Source: Mayamaea pseudoterrestris (Eukaryota). Taken from it: a stretch of 64,000 bases of DNA. The notes beneath the pieces were generated by a model. That model did not search any database, had not been told where the DNA came from, and worked only from the letters and a program-made list of their open reading frames with translations. Both the position numbers and the translations under genes were made by a program. Every line of letters starts with the position of its first letter. The first letter of the stretch is position 1. Shown here piece after piece: positions 41,040 to 56,860 of the stretch. The DNA lies in assembly GCA_027923505.1 (NCBI GenBank), contig BROI01000001.1:1116001-1180000 (forward strand). The letters run 5' to 3'.

Positions 41040-42255
41040 TGTAGTTATATACAGTACAGTTTAGTACGCTTCACTCATGGAGCAATTTCGGAGCGTTGTT
41101 GTGCGCTGCGCCATCTCTCGTCGATGCTTTCGCTTTGGCAGTTTCTCGCCGTCGCGCGAGCATGGCCGTCAACGGTCGGTTCCATCTTTTCAAAAAATTG
41201 AAATCTGAAACGTCGCACTGGTTTCCTGATTCGTGGAGAGCAAGAACAACTGCGATTGCGCCTCGTCATCTCCTTCCTCTTTATCCTCTCGCCGCATCTC
41301 ACGTTCAGGGGCTACTAGTATCGATGATTGCATCACGACGTACGTCTTTCATTAGTCATGAACACCGAGAGAGTCCGTTGTTGGTAGAGGCCGAGAATAC
41401 GAAGCAAATGTCGCGTGCTGCTCGCTTCTGATGCTACTTGCTGATAATCATTACCAGGTCATTAGAGTATCTCTGTTCGAAGCAAATGCTATATATAAGA
41501 AACTCAATCTCGTCATCGTCCTCCACTTACACGATACTACAGGCTTCCAACGAATCAGCAATGTCCAAACTTGATGCTTTCCCGCGGTGTTCTGTGTCGC
41601 AATTCGCAATGTACTTGGATCTTGAATATTCGACGTCGACCGCCAAGACGCCAAGAATTGCTGGGAAGCTTTCCATGAGCGCAATGGCCTGCACTCGAGA
41701 TTCTACGCGATGAGGGGACTCGCTGTAAACTTGGTCTAGTGCCTTCTTGTAACGACGGACGCATGAAACGAAATGGATACTTTCGTTGCGACAAGTGCGA
41801 CGTCTATTTCCACCGAAACGACCCTTAACAAGGAATCTGCGGAGTGACGCGCTGTCGCGGAAGCCTCATTACATTGTCGAGTTGCAATGCCGCATTGCAT
41901 CCAAGTGTTTTGACTGTGAAGATCACACACCTTGCGACCAACGCGCACAAGGCCGTCGTCTGCCTTGATTGCATAGGGGGTGTCGTGTGGGTCTGCCAGG
42001 TTTGCGGCATTCGGCCGCGCTGACTGCTGTGGTAGTCAACTTTGCGGTGATTGCGGCAATGCGTGGAGCGATGCCTATCTAATTGCGACGAATGTAACGG
42101 TGGCGCATGCAGCGTGCGATGTGATCGGCCTGATCCTTTCCCTGGTGCCAGAGAGCTTGAGCAATGCTCCAAAAATGTGCCATTGTAACTGCTTCGCAGA
42201 CTCTTTAAGTGTTTACACTAATAAATCACGTCAATAAATATAGTATCAGTGTAAT

Positions 42256-48885: not shown

Positions 48886-51800
48886 CTAATTTTCGTCACC
48901 TTCCATAGAACGCATCGTATTTGAAGTTGAAAACACCCTTATGTAGTCCTTGGGTTCAAGAGGAACGTCAGTTGGGGGTCGACATGCCGACGCAACACCG
49001 GTGAAACGTGCGAGTCGCTCGTACGCCAACAAGGCCAAACTAAATTGCGGTGCAACGCGCAGCATTCGGGGTAAAGCTCCTTGAAAGAATGCTTTCGTTC
49101 CCTCCAACTCATAGATTTTTCTGGCGCAGTCCCTAATACCAGCATAGCCAAGCTCGCCAGCACCAGGAATTGCTTGCAATCGTACCCGTATTACGTCGAA
49201 CGGTGTCGTCAAGATGGCCGACGGAACTGCCGCCAGAGTTCCAGCAATCAATACGTCGGATAGAGTGATTTGGCCGTCCGGTCGAATGTCCGCTAAATAT
49301 CGCTTACTCGCAGCGTAACCAGGAAAGTAAATAGCGCTAAAGGTAATGTCGCGCAACAGACATGCTGTCGCTCCATGAACAAGTATCTGCGGAAAGCCAA
49401 GTTCCCGGACAACGCCGGTCAATGTCAGCAATCGCGGTGGCTCGATGGTGCGAGCTTTGTATAGCTGTAACATTTCGTCATGAAGTATCAGGCGAGTCTT
49501 GCTCAGCTCCATGGGATTTGAAACCAAAAGCTGGCAAGCGCCTGCGCAGGCGCCCGCTAAAGCCTCCACAAACACGTTGCTCTCGCGGCTGCTCAAAGAT
49601 GGATCATTCTTATTGTCAGAGGACCTGAAAGTGTTCATTATCAAATCGTTAACATGAAGTTTGATAGCCTTTTCGGGTGCACTTAAAAGCAATTGTGGCA
49701 GCAATCCACGGTATAGACCAGCAAAACCATTAAATCGAAAAATTTGACGGTAGCAGTCAAGCGAATTGGCGTATAAACGACGTTCGACTATTCGCTGATT
49801 CATTAAACGCGTCTTTATCACGTCAAAAGGATAGCAAACCACAACGGCAAAAATGGTAGCGAAAGTACTGAGACTGACTTGGGCCACTGAATCGCCACAC
49901 ATCAAGCCGACTGAATCACTCTCGTTGTTTTCCAAAGCATCGCGCCGCGCCTTTGCAGGGGGTATCAGAGTGAGTGCATCACCACGATCGGCGTCTGGAG
50001 CCAGTCGTTGCACAAAATCAATGCCGCATACTCTGACCGTATCGTCGTGGTCTACAAAGCCGTCGCAATCCACATCGAACAAAGAGAACACAATTTCCAC
50101 CTGTCGACGACTCAGCCGGTTGCCAAAACCGATAGCCTTGTTTGCCACTTTGAAGTCATCGGCTGACACTGGACCACCCTTGATCGCCTGTGCTTTGTTG
50201 ATCAAGTTGCAAATACCCGGCAACACGGCAATTACCTCTTGGAAGGCCACAAAGTCGGCGTAATCCAAAAAGTGCATGCTCTCGAGCGATGATCTTGTCG
50301 TCTGTGCCGGACTTTGTTCTGTCGGCACTGGCTGCGTTGCAGATTTGCTCGATTGCTTCTCCAGCGTCGAAGAGTGGGCCGTCTGCTCAGTCGTTGTTGG
50401 AATACTACGTAGTGTTTCACGCCAGGAAAGGCTTTCTAATCGATCAATTACACCACGAGGCAATCTCCCTCCGGAGCTCGCAGTAAGGACTCGGACAAAG
50501 TCTTCTGGAGGCAAGCATCCGTAATTTCGTCGGTCGCTTCCAGACTGCTCATCCACGGTTTGCCAAAACGATTGCTGACCAAGTTCTCGTTGCAACTCAA
50601 CTAAAAATTGCGGAAATGTGGATTGGCGGATACACTTTGATGCGTCTTTACCAAAATAGTTTTGGAAAAATTCGGATCGATAATTCACACTCGGAAAGTA
50701 AGGATGAAGACACCGGTGAACGTCTTTCATAAAGACTCTCCCAGATTGTTGCTCATCGAATAGTAAGAATGCAAGGTCCACTTCCGGATCCGGCCGAGCC
50801 ATGAGCAAATGTAGGAAGCAAAAGTCGGCGAGGTAAACGTTTTGACTGTCATCGTTGCTCCTGTCTCCTCGCCGGCGATTAAGCACTCGATATAGATTGA
50901 CGAGGCTCACGTCGACCAAAGGATCCGACGTTGGAATATTATTGCTCCGATACAACTCCTGCCAAGCTTGAACAAACTCCTCTAGAGTCAGGTAGAAAGT
51001 GCCTCGTGCATCTTTCTTGGTTGCATATTGCAGAAACAGGTTATTCATTCGACAAGACGGCAAGACATGGTTTCGAAAGGCCGAGTAATCAACCACCCAG
51101 CACTGCAACGACCGATTATCATGATCAGCTGCACCGGCCACAACTGATGCAGAATGTTGTCTTCCAAACAGAAAACCCCCTTCTCCAAATATAGCGCCAG
51201 GTCCGAGAGACGCGGGACGAATGGTGCGATCGCGAAGTGAATGATTTGCCGAAAAACGCCCTGGCACTTGCTGTACAACGTGGGCACGACCTTGTCGAAC
51301 AATGTAGAGTGCTCTCGGCGCGTCAGACTGGGGAGGTGGTGGTAGTATTGAATCGTTGTTTTCGTACTCATGCTGCGTCGCTGTTGTAGATTGCTGCATG
51401 GCTTTCGTAGACTGCTGCACCGTTGCGAGATTTGACGACGAGGTGTACGTCCGCGACAATGGCTGGGTACTAGCAATATCCTCTTTCGCCTCCTCCGCCT
51501 CCTCCCTCGTCTTTTCCAACTCCTCCAATAGCAAGACTGCTTCCGTAACTGACTCTGCATATTCAAAGGGCTCTTGTGTACCACTTTGTACAGTGGTTCC
51601 ATCACTTTCGTCGTCGGCTGCGGCATCATCAACTGTCGTTCGCCGTCGTGTGACATCTTCCGCATCGACAGAAGCTACTGCAGGACGATTGACGGTAGCT
51701 GCGACTTTATTATTCTCGAGCCTTTGACTGTCGTGTCCATTTTCTCCTTCTGCATCAACATCATCCATCCAATCTGCAGCGTCCACCGTTTCCTCTAGAT

Positions 51801-52122
51801 CAGCTGGTCCATGCGAAGCACTAGTCTGACGTTGCAAATGTACCTCTGGTGGCCGGACGTCGACATCATTCTCATCGTCTGCATATACATCGACGCAGCC
51901 TTCTAGAATGATAATGTCATTTGGCTGATACTCGGACAAGTAGGCGGCTGCAACGAGTCGTTCCACTTGCTCATCGTCGAGACACGAAAAGAAGGAATTC
52001 TTGCGAAGCGCCAGTCGAATGAGCCGCTCATCGTCGGAGCTTTTATAGGAGGACACTGGTGGAACTGGAGCTGCAAAGGTTGACGACGACGATGATGAAG
52101 AGGACGCAAAGTTTGTAGTCAT
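48886..52122 (-). CDS. Aralar/citrin-like (SLC25A12/13) mitochondrial carrier with EF-hands and an extra N-terminal cNMP-binding-like domain
   Basis: Carrier motifs PFDVIKTRL, PMELSKTRL, PFDVIRVRL; aspartate/glutamate-carrier-like PEKAIKL, RDITFSAIYFP, PQF; EF-hands FDEQQSGRV and FDVDCDGFVDHDD; cNMP-like LYIVRQG..GPGAIFGEGG. Confidence 0.9.
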   Translation of the reverse strand: MTTNFASSSSSSSSTFAAPVPPVSSYKSSDDERLIRLALRKNSFFSCLDDEQVERLVAAAYLSEYQPNDIIILEGCVDVYADDENDVDVRPPEVHLQRQTSASHGPADLEETVDAADWMDDVDAEGENGHDSQRLENNKVAATVNRPAVASVDAEDVTRRRTTVDDAAADDESDGTTVQSGTQEPFEYAESVTEAVLLLEELEKTREEAEEAKEDIASTQPLSRTYTSSSNLATVQQSTKAMQQSTTATQHEYENNDSILPPPPQSDAPRALYIVRQGRAHVVQQVPGRFSANHSLRDRTIRPASLGPGAIFGEGGFLFGRQHSASVVAGAADHDNRSLQCWVVDYSAFRNHVLPSCRMNNLFLQYATKKDARGTFYLTLEEFVQAWQELYRSNNIPTSDPLVDVSLVNLYRVLNRRRGDRSNDDSQNVYLADFCFLHLLMARPDPEVDLAFLLFDEQQSGRVFMKDVHRCLHPYFPSVNYRSEFFQNYFGKDASKCIRQSTFPQFLVELQRELGQQSFWQTVDEQSGSDRRNYGCLPPEDFVRVLTASSGGRLPRGVIDRLESLSWRETLRSIPTTTEQTAHSSTLEKQSSKSATQPVPTEQSPAQTTRSSLESMHFLDYADFVAFQEVIAVLPGICNLINKAQAIKGGPVSADDFKVANKAIGFGNRLSRRQVEIVFSLFDVDCDGFVDHDDTVRVCGIDFVQRLAPDADRGDALTLIPPAKARRDALENNESDSVGLMCGDSVAQVSLSTFATIFAVVVCYPFDVIKTRLMNQRIVERRLYANSLDCYRQIFRFNGFAGLYRGLLPQLLLSAPEKAIKLHVNDLIMNTFRSSDNKNDPSLSSRESNVFVEALAGACAGACQLLVSNPMELSKTRLILHDEMLQLYKARTIEPPRLLTLTGVVRELGFPQILVHGATACLLRDITFSAIYFPGYAASKRYLADIRPDGQITLSDVLIAGTLAAVPSAILTTPFDVIRVRLQAIPGAGELGYAGIRDCARKIYELEGTKAFFQGALPRMLRVAPQFSLALLAYERLARFTGVASACRPPTDVPLEPKDYIRVFSTSNTMRSMEGDEN

Positions 52123-52365
52123 GCTGCTTGTGACGACTTTCGACAATGTTCGATCCAAGCGTCGTCGGCAGCGAACCTTTAGCTACGGTACGGTACCGTA
52201 TCCAGATGCAAAAGACAGATAGTTTAGGTCTTCGATGCCTGACCTTGCGAACTGTACGAGTCGCTCTACTAATTCCTATAGTTGAAAACTTCAATCTTAT
52301 ACCTGTTATACTCATCTGGTTCATCGCACTAAACATTCATCTATGCCGCTGCCAAGCAAGCTGAC

Positions 52366-53630: not shown

Positions 53631-54520
53631 GGTGATGAATGAAGGGGTGAATAGGGATCGAAAGTGGAGGACCGTGCCGTTTTGTGGCATCGTTCAGCCA
53701 GAATCGCACCTTCGGGGTTTTGCCGAACGATGACCGTCGGAGTCGTCGGAGAGTTCCAACTTCCGAACTTGAAGGAAAAGTGCCAGCAGTTGACATATTT
53801 TACCGAAGAAAGGGTCATTCTGAATGTTGAGGCTGTAGTTAATCAACGGTTCTATCCGGCCCTTCCGGATCTCAGACTTATCACTGAATCATTCGTCAAG
53901 TAAGCCCCAAGACCATCTGTTTAAGCCTTGCAGCGGTTTAAACCTGGAATCTTGGGATTCTGAATTGGTCGTTCCAGTTTCTTCAAGCCACGCCAGTGGC
54001 GTTCGCAGCGAACAGCTTCTCCAGACATTTTTCGTTTCCGGTTCGGAGTGACGCATATCCCACGGGCTTTCACTAGCAACTCTGAACTACTACCGGTAGT
54101 CGTGGTCATCCCGAACGATGACCTTGACATGATGACCGTTTGGTCGCTGCAGCACACCAACAACGAACCGTATCACGACGTACAGTACTCACTGTCAGTA
54201 GCAGCACTCGGCCAAGTTGCAGAAGCCTGCAACACATAATATGACATGACCATGGCCTTTACGGGTGTGCGATTGTTTCATCATTAGTGCGATACGTATT
54301 GTAAACAAATTTGACAAAGCTACAGGTACTTGTGCACATCAAAGCAAACGCTCGCTGTGCTACCGTACGAAGTACCGGTACGACGTATCGAAAGAGGGCG
54401 CAGCAACGTCATTACCGTACATATGCGATCTTTTCAACACCGTTGCGATATTCTTCCCTCGTCGATTTCGGCGCGCCACCTACGGCGAGTTCAAAGCAGC
54501 ATTGAAGATGACGAGGGAGG

Positions 54521-54789
54521 TGTTGATACTCCACTTCCGGGTTCCTTATCCGGTATCCAAGGAAGCTGCACTGGCTCGGCTTCCACCTAAGTGAAGCCTC
54601 CACCGTTGCCTAGCACATGTGTTTTAGTTATGCCTCAGCGACAGGCGGTTAGATCAGCGAGCCAACCGAGGTTCCCACCGGCCACAAGTAGCGATAGAAC
54701 TCGGCAGGCAGTGCGACAATTGCCGCTCATAATAATTCACGTCAATCGTTTTGATCATTTCTAGTGTCTCTCCCTTAGAGGCATCAACA
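54521..54789 (+). repeat. 5' LTR, 269 bp
   Basis: TG...CA ends with a 7-bp terminal inverted repeat; 54586-54789 is identical to 56413-56616. Confidence 0.95.
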
Positions 54790-54801
54790 GACGTGAATTA
54801 T
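54790..54801 (+). promoter_or_regulatory. Putative self-priming primer-binding site
   Basis: GACGTGAATTAT abuts the LTR end and is the exact reverse complement of ATAATTCACGTC at 54732-54743; no TGG-type tRNA PBS. Confidence 0.75.
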
Positions 54802-54961
54802 ACGATAATATCCGGCAAGTAACATCATTGACTCTTTCGTTTAACAATCTAAAGAGCACTCACGTTACCACCTTCGTCTTTTGCGTCCAGCGACTGAACG
54901 ACTCGAGCAACCCAGCTCTTCCCTCCGAGTGTGATCCTCCGCTCTTCTACCCTTCGTCACC

Positions 54962-56089
54962 ATGGCGGATTCAAGCAGCACCAAGCTGGTCTTTCCTCTC
55001 GAAGAACTGACTGTTCTAGGCTCTACTGGCACCATCACGTTCGACGAGGCGCTCCAATTCGACAAGGAACTCCTCCAGAACGCGCGCTCCGTCACCAGCC
55101 AGTATGGCAACGGCAACGTGGGTCACATTCATCAAGTTGTCACCCCGGCCGAGTATGCCGCACGTTCCCCCATCGTCTATGAAGCTGTCGCCTTTCCGCA
55201 GCTCATCATTGCGCCAGGCGCCACTGGTCCCCAGATTGCTCAAGCCAACCGCGAGTACTCGGCTGCACTCTCGGCTTTCAACAAAAACAACCTGGTCGCC
55301 ACAGCGCTGATCTCTCAAGTCACCAAGGCCATTCCATCCATCTATCTCCAAGCGTTGGAAGATCCAGTCACTGGCATGGAAGAAGTCACCATCTTTCAGT
55401 TGCGCCAGCACATCAAGATCGAGTACGGCACTGCCACGGCGCAGCAAATCGAAGCCAACTACGCCATGGCTGGCGAACCGTTCAACTTGAGCGAGTCGGT
55501 AGAAGCCTACACTGGCAAAATGGAACGCGTTCGTCGTCTTGCAGCAGCAACCAACGACCCCATGTCGGACACCGCCTCCATCCGTTTCGCTGTGGCCGCC
55601 ATGGCTGCAATGGGCCAGTTCAAAGCCGACTTGCACGCCCGCACCATTGAGCAACAGCTCCCAGGCCAAGCTGATGAAACTTGGCCAGCTTTTGTCTCTT
55701 GGCTCAAGCGTGTGGACAAAGCTCGCCGCCAGGAGAAAACCGTTGCCGACGCTGGTTACATGGCGCAGGCAAATTTTGCGTCCGCTGTCGCAGCTGCTGT
55801 CCGAGAGCAAATCGCTGCGACACACCGCGCGCCTGCGAATCCGCCGCCGCCGCCGCCCAACAACAACAACAATCAGGGCAACAACGGCAACAACAACAAC
55901 AACAACGGCAACAACGCTCCTCACGTCAAGAAGTACTGTCATTCCCATGGCTACTGTGGACATACAAGCATGCAGTGCAACCGTCGCAGCCCCGGCCACC
56001 AAGAAGCAGCCACTAGTGCCAACAAGATGGGCGGCAACGAAACCAATTTCGTCTACCGCAACCAACGCAGTCGCGCGCAGGGAGAATAG
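54962..56089 (+). CDS. gag: Retrotransposon Gag
   Basis: Intact 375-aa ORF inside the LTRs; zinc-knuckle variant YCHSHGYCGHTSMQC followed by PGHQEAATSANKMGGN; poly-Pro/Asn linker. Confidence 0.9.
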   Translation: MADSSSTKLVFPLEELTVLGSTGTITFDEALQFDKELLQNARSVTSQYGNGNVGHIHQVVTPAEYAARSPIVYEAVAFPQLIIAPGATGPQIAQANREYSAALSAFNKNNLVATALISQVTKAIPSIYLQALEDPVTGMEEVTIFQLRQHIKIEYGTATAQQIEANYAMAGEPFNLSESVEAYTGKMERVRRLAAATNDPMSDTASIRFAVAAMAAMGQFKADLHARTIEQQLPGQADETWPAFVSWLKRVDKARRQEKTVADAGYMAQANFASAVAAAVREQIAATHRAPANPPPPPPNNNNNQGNNGNNNNNNGNNAPHVKKYCHSHGYCGHTSMQCNRRSPGHQEAATSANKMGGNETNFVYRNQRSRAQGE

Positions 56090-56412
56090 GCCGGAGGGAC
56101 GGCATCTACTCGTAGTTCATTTAATAAGCTTGAGTTAAATGAACTTGATGTCTCCTCCCCGCCTATATCTCTAGCCATAGCAGACACTGGATGTACTGGA
56201 CACTACATCTCGTGCCAGTTGCCCTTCACCAACCGGCAACCCGCCAATCCCAGTCTTACCGTCCACGTTCCCAACGGAACCACCATGCATTCAACTCATA
56301 CAGTCCAGCTCGACCTGCCCGGTTGCTCCTTTGAGGCTTGTACAGCACACGTCTTCCCCGACATGACGCAGTCTCTCATTTCAATCGGTCAATTGTGTGA
56401 CGATGGATGCTC
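56090..56412 (+). pseudogene. pol: Truncated pol (aspartic protease only), in frame with gag after TAG
   Basis: AIADTGCTGHY, VHVPNG, AHVFP, SLISIGQLCDDGC, then an abrupt junction into LTR sequence. Confidence 0.9.
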
Positions 56413-56616
56413 CCTAAGTGAAGCCTCCACCGTTGCCTAGCACATGTGTTTTAGTTATGCCTCAGCGACAGGCGGTTAGATCAGCGAGCCAACCGAGGTT
56501 CCCACCGGCCACAAGTAGCGATAGAACTCGGCAGGCAGTGCGACAATTGCCGCTCATAATAATTCACGTCAATCGTTTTGATCATTTCTAGTGTCTCTCC
56601 CTTAGAGGCATCAACA
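56413..56616 (+). repeat. 3' LTR lacking its first 65 bp
   Basis: 204 bp identical to 54586-54789, ending ATCAACA and followed by the TSD. Confidence 0.95.
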
Positions 56617-56860
56617 GGAGGAGCACCTGATGATTACTATTGTAAAACAATTCTCGTTCTCTCTTTGTAGTCAAGCAACGGAAAAATAGAAAGCCGTCGA
56701 ACTTTCTACAGGCAGGTTTAGCGCTTGTGGGCGTTGGCAATCGTCAATCGACAATCGACAGTGATTTGGTTCTTGCTTGCACTCAAGTCGGTGGGGCAAT
56801 ATACAGTAATTTCAGACTTGCAAACAGCAAGTGACAAGGACGAGCAAGAGGCGATTGATT

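Follow-up and report, generated by a model that had tools for sequence, protein, structure and literature searches.

The window analysed here, a 64-kb stretch of Mayamaea pseudoterrestris DNA, contains on its forward strand a Ty1/copia-type insertion bordered by the 5-bp target-site duplication (TSD) GGAGG, located at 54516-54520 and, after the 3' LTR, at 56617-56621. The 5' LTR (54521-54789) is 269 nt long and ends in a 7-nt terminal inverted repeat, TGTTGAT...ATCAACA. In its 3' part, an initiator-like TCATA (54727-54731) with a predicted transcription start at T54730 (or A54729) precedes a 12-nt stretch, ATAATTCACGTC (54732-54743), called arm 1 in the following text. Arm 1 is the putative self-primer, with a predicted RNase H cut after C54743. 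The remainder of R-U5 forms a 46-nt loop (54744-54789) that starts with a T-rich block and in which 54764-54784 make up an inner hairpin. The putative primer-binding site (PBS), GACGTGAATTAT (54790-54801), adjoins the LTR end directly. The gag ORF (54962-56089) encodes 375 aa, includes one CCHC-like knuckle, and is closed by the stop codon TAG at 56087-56089. The beginning of pol follows in the gag frame (56090-56412) and consists of a conserved block behind the stop, GGAGGGACGG, and part of the protease, ADTGCTGH ... SIGQLCDDGC. The element is terminated by the last 204 nt of the 3' LTR (56413-56616), in which arm 1 recurs at 56559-56570.

Sequence common to both LTR copies is limited to 204-205 nt, at a distance of 1827 nt, and the segments 54586-54789 and 56413-56616 are 100% identical. 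At the deletion junction 56412/56413 the protease runs into the middle of the 3' LTR. The element, described in the sequence-only reading simply as a copia retrotransposon, is not whole: an internal deletion extends from 56412, in the protease region, to 56413, within the 3' LTR. INT, RT, RNase H and PPT are absent from the window copy, which is therefore replication-incompetent; it is a dead deletion derivative of a Ty1/copia element. Identity of the remaining LTR parts, together with the intact TSD, points to a recent insertion.

Other copies of the family were observed in the host. In read contigs from four sequencing runs, compared over 54300-56400, depth in the LTR bin was about 7-24 times that of the flank, which showed that the LTR family is multicopy. 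In host contigs the LTR start was also seen directly behind a PPT-like ...CAGGGT(G), and full-length copies therefore exist in the host. All four indels listed within the LTR among host copies are placed in the loop (54757, 54760, 54765 and 54771). Paralogues of the window gag, 86, 84 and 60% identical, are annotated in Mayamaea pseudoterrestris. In addition, a 276-nt contig present in two of the four runs follows the left flank as far as 54518, after which come 35 letters unlike the LTR; it may represent an empty-site allele, i.e. a polymorphic insertion.

Assignment to copia, proposed in the sequence-only reading, held when the protease fragment and its relatives were examined. The fragment itself matches Pfam Pol_BBD with an E value of 4.7e-5, which does not reach the curated cutoff. 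Its relatives are polyproteins with an N-terminal PR, an integrase annotation before RT, and PF07727 (RVT_2), and the complete relatives that also have the structure described below (L034, L039 and L029) encode PR...RVT_2 polyproteins, in which residues ~700-970 of pol match the copia-type RT domain RVT_2 with E values of 5e-7 to 2e-4, falling slightly short of the gathering score. RVT_2 and the PR-INT-RT order characteristic of Ty1/copia are thus known from the relatives, the window copy keeping gag and a PR fragment only, and the LTR terminal inverted repeat and the 5-bp TSD of the window element agree with this assignment. The tRNA-complementary PBS expected of the group was not found in its usual TGG form: TGG does not follow the LTR in the window element, nor does it in the 20 relatives that share the structure, and the PBS varies among lineages.

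Re-reading the sequence bore out the features from which the idea of self-priming had arisen. The 12 nt that follow the 5' LTR are the perfect reverse complement of arm 1, TCAT (54727-54730) is located 1 nt upstream of the LTR 12-mer, and no TGG-type tRNA PBS is present behind the 5' LTR. The start of the paired 12-mer at the first base past the LTR does not depend on the pairing itself, because the LTR boundary is fixed independently by the TSD and by the end of the 3' LTR (56616). Throughout the 64-kb window, perfect matches to the 12-mer occur only at 54732-54743, at 54790-54801 and in the 3' LTR copy. Allowing at most one mismatch gave 4 hits, the additional one at 42221, vs 0.34 expected, and none of 100 shuffled sequences reached 4. 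A tRNA scan of the same 64 kb detected 0 tRNA genes.

Folding of the RNA segment 54730-54806 produced a 12-bp closing stem and an inner hairpin, with an MFE of -22.5 kcal/mol (z = -4.8), a stability that none of 200 shuffled sequences equalled. The small stem that had been proposed within the 46-nt loop is present in this fold as 8 bp between 54764-54771 and 54777-54784, two of them G-U.

To obtain related loci, metagenome contigs were scanned with an alignment of the protease region, which yielded 45 loci. A blind search was then made upstream of gag for inverted repeats with perfectly matching arms of 10 nt or more and loops of 15-150 nt. A common layout was found in 21 of the 45 loci, consisting of a YCATWA motif, an arm of 10-12 nt, a loop, the LTR end, and a complementary arm flush with it. 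The blind search disclosed perfect arms of 10-12 nt in 17 loci, with loops of 36-50 nt and an LTR-like terminus in ..CA or ..TA. Four loci have the layout in imperfect form. In L012 the pairing between arm and PBS includes one G-U, and in L015 11 of 12 positions are paired. L029 has 10 Watson-Crick pairs, one G-U and one mismatch, although it is young (its LTRs are 99.6% identical), while L010, a decayed copy, has two G-U pairs and a loop collapsed to 13 nt. The distance between arm and PBS is 28-50 nt in 20 of the 21 loci, and in all 21 the PBS begins with G, followed by A or T. The LTR end was confirmed by a second LTR in L029, L034 and L037, and a terminal inverted repeat fits the inferred end in L005, L017, L034, L043, L045 and L015.

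The remaining 24 loci were left out of the positives. In 16 of them the 5' leader is missing from the contig: twelve have less than 700 nt before the protease match, and the contigs of L004, L014, L019 and L021 start inside gag or at most 36 nt from it. In L028 the contig extends 15 nt upstream of the PBS, which has the same sequence as in L045. A deletion into gag has removed the PBS of L022 and L044, in which arm 1 and the LTR end are retained. In L033, whose gag is broken, the motif and an arm-like sequence are present and the complementary PBS is absent. Four further loci (L024, L025, L035 and L041) have upstream sequence in which no structure could be recognised. One TGG-like candidate in L025, TGGTAATCCGAC, has an upstream partner but was rejected, as its surroundings contain no LTR end, motif or gag start.

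The initiator-like motif is a regular component of this organization. In all 21 aligned elements YCAT[A/T]A is positioned at a near-fixed distance before arm 1, and where the arm is perfect, the Inr-like motif is 0-4 nt upstream of it. The motif fits the diatom Inr-like sequence TCAH(+1)W proposed by Kadono 2015 (PMC4686930), and on this basis T54730 is the predicted start of transcription in the window element. If transcription does start at TCAT, the primer would carry 2-4 unpaired nucleotides at its 5' end.

The arms fall into 12 sequence lineages, each matched by its own PBS, which differs in all 12. Examples of lineage arms are ATAATTCACGTC of the window element, CTTCGTAGTTC, CTCGTTAGTTC, CTTACTCAACTC, TTAATATCGTC and TATTAACGAC, and further ATAAGTTAGAAC, ATAAGTGATAAC, ATTAGTATCGTC and TCTTATTAGTTC. 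Many loci come from a few metagenomes, and for that reason the 12 lineages do not represent 12 independent hosts. Pairing was quantified as the longest perfect run that starts with the first post-LTR base, in comparison with 100 nt of upstream sequence. For 12 representatives, comparison of each PBS with its own upstream region gave runs of 12, 11, 11, 12, 11, 10, 12, 12, 12, 12, 9 and 4. When foreign PBSs were compared with the same upstream regions (n=132), the maximal run was 8 and the mean 3.6. Shuffled upstream regions (n=12,000) reached a run of at least 10 once, and other positions in the same loci (n=696) gave a maximum of 7.

Counted per position in a register anchored on the structure, and not in the MAFFT register, pairs 1-11 are formed in 11-12 of the 12 lineages, with 1-5 types of base pair at each position, and pair 1 is C:G in every lineage. 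Pair 12 is formed in 9 of 12 lineages, and pairs 13 and 14 in only 2/12 and 1/12. As pairing drops beyond pair 12, the duplex is sharply limited to 11-12 bp. An automated pair count was also made on the unedited MAFFT alignment of 21 rows, in which the window element, L034 and L037 are out of register. In this alignment 85.4% of cells are paired vs 55.2 +/- 2.5 in shuffled controls (0/500 reach the observed value), and the covariation score is 0.699 vs 0.174 in shuffles (0/500). Controls with a slid register were 27-50% paired, and in 11 of the 12 pairs both strands carry changes. The stem is found in the MFE folds of the window element and of 10 out of 11 relatives, the exception being L007, in which the PBS pairs elsewhere.

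The check on relatives suggested earlier, a search for compensatory changes, was thus answered in favour of the structure, since arm and PBS change together in 12 lineages, stay complementary, and keep their position flush with the LTR end. This covariation strongly supports the initial proposal that the copia element is self-primed. We consider it probable that the lineage primes synthesis of minus-strand DNA with the 5' end of its own RNA, in the manner of Tf1, and not with a tRNA. Counter-evidence comes from L033, which lacks a complementary PBS, from the imperfect pairing in the young L029, from the alternative fold of L007, and from L024, L025, L035 and L041, in which no structure was recognised. 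According to this model, transcription would start at the initiator-like TCAT in the LTR, and RNA nucleotides about +3 to +14, corresponding to arm 1, would fold back over the 46-nt R-U5 loop and pair with 54790-54801. While the complementarity of the two sequences is observed directly, formation of the duplex in RNA is a prediction. By analogy with Tf1, the RNase H of the element would cut after the last paired C, and the freed 3' OH would be extended through U5 and R, so that the LTR would end precisely where pairing begins. The PBS strand of the duplex is in fact flush with the LTR end, the position required of a primer that sets this end. If plus-strand synthesis recopies the PBS from the primer, as the general scheme of reverse transcription suggests, arm 1 and PBS would drift together, and this would explain their covariation. 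The model makes a sharp prediction, namely that the 5' end of the RNA is at 54732 or a few nucleotides upstream of it, and that the primer is RNA of the element itself.

Two observations concern the putative cleavage site. At the LTR edge, where pairing ends, the final base pair is C:G in every case, an indirect hint on the putative RNase H cut. Moreover, a T-rich block, AT(C/G)NTTTT, is kept directly 3' of arm 1 in most lineages (54744-54755 in the window). It may provide the context of the RNase H cut, or it may be a 3'-end processing region that defines R.

The same pairing between arm 1 and PBS could also operate in trans, with a short LTR-derived 5' RNA, or the 5' end of a co-packaged second genome, as the primer. 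The covariation demands complementarity and not a hairpin, and the loop varies freely in sequence and, within 28-50 nt, in length, being collapsed to 13 nt in L010, all of which priming in trans would accommodate. It would also be compatible with the dimeric genome of Pseudoviridae (PMC8515867). Confinement of the arm-to-PBS distance to the same 28-50 nt in 20 of 21 loci, on the other hand, speaks for an intramolecular structure, as does the stem itself, which 11 of the 12 representatives form in their MFE folds. Intramolecular priming is also the accepted model for Tf1, and we regard priming in trans as unlikely. A similarly low probability is given to the explanation that the stem is a structure of the leader RNA, serving in packaging, dimerisation or translation control in the way of retroviral U5-leader stems, while another primer, such as an internal tRNA fragment of the hemivirus type, is used at or near 54790-54810. 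Precedents are found within copia: copia and Ty5 use internal tRNA fragments, half tRNAs are described for Osser, Bryco and Bianca (PMC6317226; PMC8515867), and the fungal GalEa copia elements have a conserved hairpin of unknown function at the PBS site (PMC5445492). A leader structure of this kind does not account for the paired arm beginning exactly at the first post-LTR base, the position of the primer 3' end, in all 21 loci, nor for pairing that ends sharply after 11-12 bp, near the 11 bp of the Tf1 primer (PMC5445492). Furthermore, no single tRNA fragment can serve as the primer, because the PBS differs in all 12 lineages.

This variability also weighs against a host tRNA or tRNA half that primes at 54790-54801, with the LTR 12-mer as an incidental tRNA-like stretch. 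Each lineage would need a different tRNA and, in addition, a matching tRNA-like copy in the corresponding place of the LTR, beside the initiator motif, and since TGG is missing at the PBS, the 3'-CCA end of a tRNA cannot pair there; we judge such priming very improbable. An inverted repeat that arose by chance and has no function is the least credible of these explanations. By our own estimate, the complement of a given 12-mer is expected in a 269-nt LTR with a probability of ~1.5e-5 (258 positions / 4^12), and all controls based on runs, shuffling, other positions and slid registers are far below the observed pairing. On the evidence of the compared sequences, chance is already refuted as an explanation.

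The preferred reading, self-priming by a fold-back of the element's own RNA, invites comparison with known systems. Tf1/sushi elements are Ty3/gypsy chromoviruses with a gypsy-type RT, INT after RT-RH and a chromodomain, and in Tf1 pairing starts at nucleotide 1 of the mRNA. The window element shares with Tf1/Tf2 of Schizosaccharomyces pombe a PBS directly 3' of the 5' LTR that is complementary to the start of its own mRNA (as predicted here), a duplex of about 11 bp (10-12 in the window lineage), the lack of a TGG-type tRNA complement, and a hairpin that spans R-U5. More specifically, its PBS adjoins the 5' LTR and is complementary, in 12 of 12 bp, to LTR sequence downstream of the putative promoter, which is the Tf1-type arrangement. 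It differs in its diatom host, in the copia-type RT (RVT_2), and in INT located before RT; moreover, it is known here from sequence alone. If TCAT is the start of transcription, the diatom primer would also differ in having 2-4 unpaired nucleotides first, while Tf1 pairs from nucleotide 1. Finding RVT_2 in the relatives, with integrase before RT, does not agree with membership by descent in the Tf1/sushi clade, and this difference of family makes convergence with Tf1 plausible. The element would work like Tf1 while standing outside the Tf1/sushi clade.

According to the ICTV profile (PMC8515867), reverse transcription in Pseudoviridae starts from a host tRNA, in most cases initiator tRNA-Met. 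In Ty3/gypsy, self-priming has been demonstrated experimentally for Tf1 and the Tf1/sushi group (PMC5445492; PMC6317226). Within copia, the plant elements Houba and Osr-1 have been proposed to be self-primed, and the same is predicted for the TAR lineage as a whole (Neumann 2019, PMC6317226, citing Capy 2005). TAR elements resemble those described here as copia elements without a tRNA PBS and with predicted self-priming; they differ in having land-plant hosts, and the comparison is with their published description (PMC6317226). The novelty considered in the sequence-only reading is thus narrower than it appeared: self-priming in copia as such is not new, given the prediction for TAR, while for diatom copia no report was found. 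The latter holds for diatom and stramenopile retrotransposons in general within the full-text literature searched. Fungal GalEa copia elements (Donnart 2017, PMC5445492) also have no tRNA PBS and carry a conserved structure at the PBS position, but this is a local palindrome beside the LTR for which the authors found no complement in the LTR (PMC5445492), whereas the partner of the diatom PBS is in the LTR, near the putative start. Hemivirus-type elements that use an internal or half tRNA (copia and Ty5; Osser, Bryco and Bianca) are similar in having a non-TGG PBS in copia. Their PBSs, however, are conserved and match tRNA-Met or tRNA-Ile (PMC6317226), whereas the diatom PBS is lineage-specific and matches the element's own LTR.

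The diatom copia groups CoDi1-7 (Maumus 2009, PMC2806351) share with the window element and its relatives the host group, the PR-IN-RT-RH order and short LTRs. The main text of the paper that defines CoDi (PMC2806351) does not mention a PBS or priming. The protease fragment of the window element is 59-62% identical to integrase-domain proteins of Phaeodactylum tricornutum, and one protein of this diatom shows 86% identity to the gag of L011, a locus in which the structure is present. Because of the latter similarity, the prediction is testable in a transformable model diatom. Taken together, these comparisons support well, at the level of sequence, a probable assignment of the element to the self-primed LTR retrotransposons, as a new and well-documented member within a diatom copia clade; the category of mechanism is itself known.

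A broader version of this proposal can be formulated, which we put forward tentatively and consider possible but rather doubtful in its full extent. Self-priming would be the standard mode of a diverse stramenopile copia clade, with relatives of P. tricornutum families among its members, either as an independent invention or as the relic of a hairpin-primed ancestor. The primer would be a capped 5' fragment of 14-17 nt with a short, unpaired 5' tail, cut at the invariant C, and the PBS would be rewritten in each cycle. A hairpin-primed ancestor has been proposed for LTR retrotransposons (Benachenhou 2013, PMC3601003). If self-priming is indeed clade-wide, the element would be independent of host tRNAs and invisible to silencing based on tRNA fragments.

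Copia elements are dominant, stress-activated transposons of diatoms (Maumus 2009, PMC2806351), and their mode of priming tells which host factors they need or can spare. CoDi elements, for example, are activated by nitrate starvation. With the structure described here, predicted self-priming reaches a third lineage and a new eukaryotic supergroup, which bears on hairpin priming as a possible ancestor of tRNA priming. In addition, annotation pipelines keyed to tRNA PBSs will miss or misjudge LTR elements of this kind.

Several other features of the elements were recorded. Gag and pol are in the same frame and are split by a single stop codon, TAG in the window (56087-56089) and either TAG or TGA among the relatives. 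A conserved block similar to GAGGGACGG is located 4-6 nt past the gag stop (56087-56105 in the window) in about 12 of the 21 elements listed, and weaker variants were observed in others. Judged from the sequences, the junction looks like a programmed stop-codon readthrough signal, which would be unusual in copia. About 10 codons around the gag/pol stop are left out in gene model P0008 of P. tricornutum. A short, conserved PPT-like sequence, GCGAGGGTG / CCAGGGTG, abuts the 3' LTR in L029, L034 and L039, and is lost in the window copy. In L003, L005, L034, L037, L045 and others, LTR termini are TA...TA (TATTGA...TCAATA, TAACAATA...TATTGTTA) and not TG...CA. Among CoDi elements, TG/CA is missing in 3 of 26 families (Maumus 2009, PMC2806351).

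On the left side of the insertion, the segment 52286-53349 is dense in in-frame tandem repeats with periods of 33, 45 and 63 nt, located in long ORFs on both strands, for which a Pfam search gave no match. Farther upstream, at 48886-52182 on the reverse strand, a long ORF encodes EF-hands and, at its C-terminus, a mitochondrial carrier domain, together with a weak match to a cNMP-binding domain that stays below the curated cutoff. This neighbour of the insertion is an ordinary host gene.
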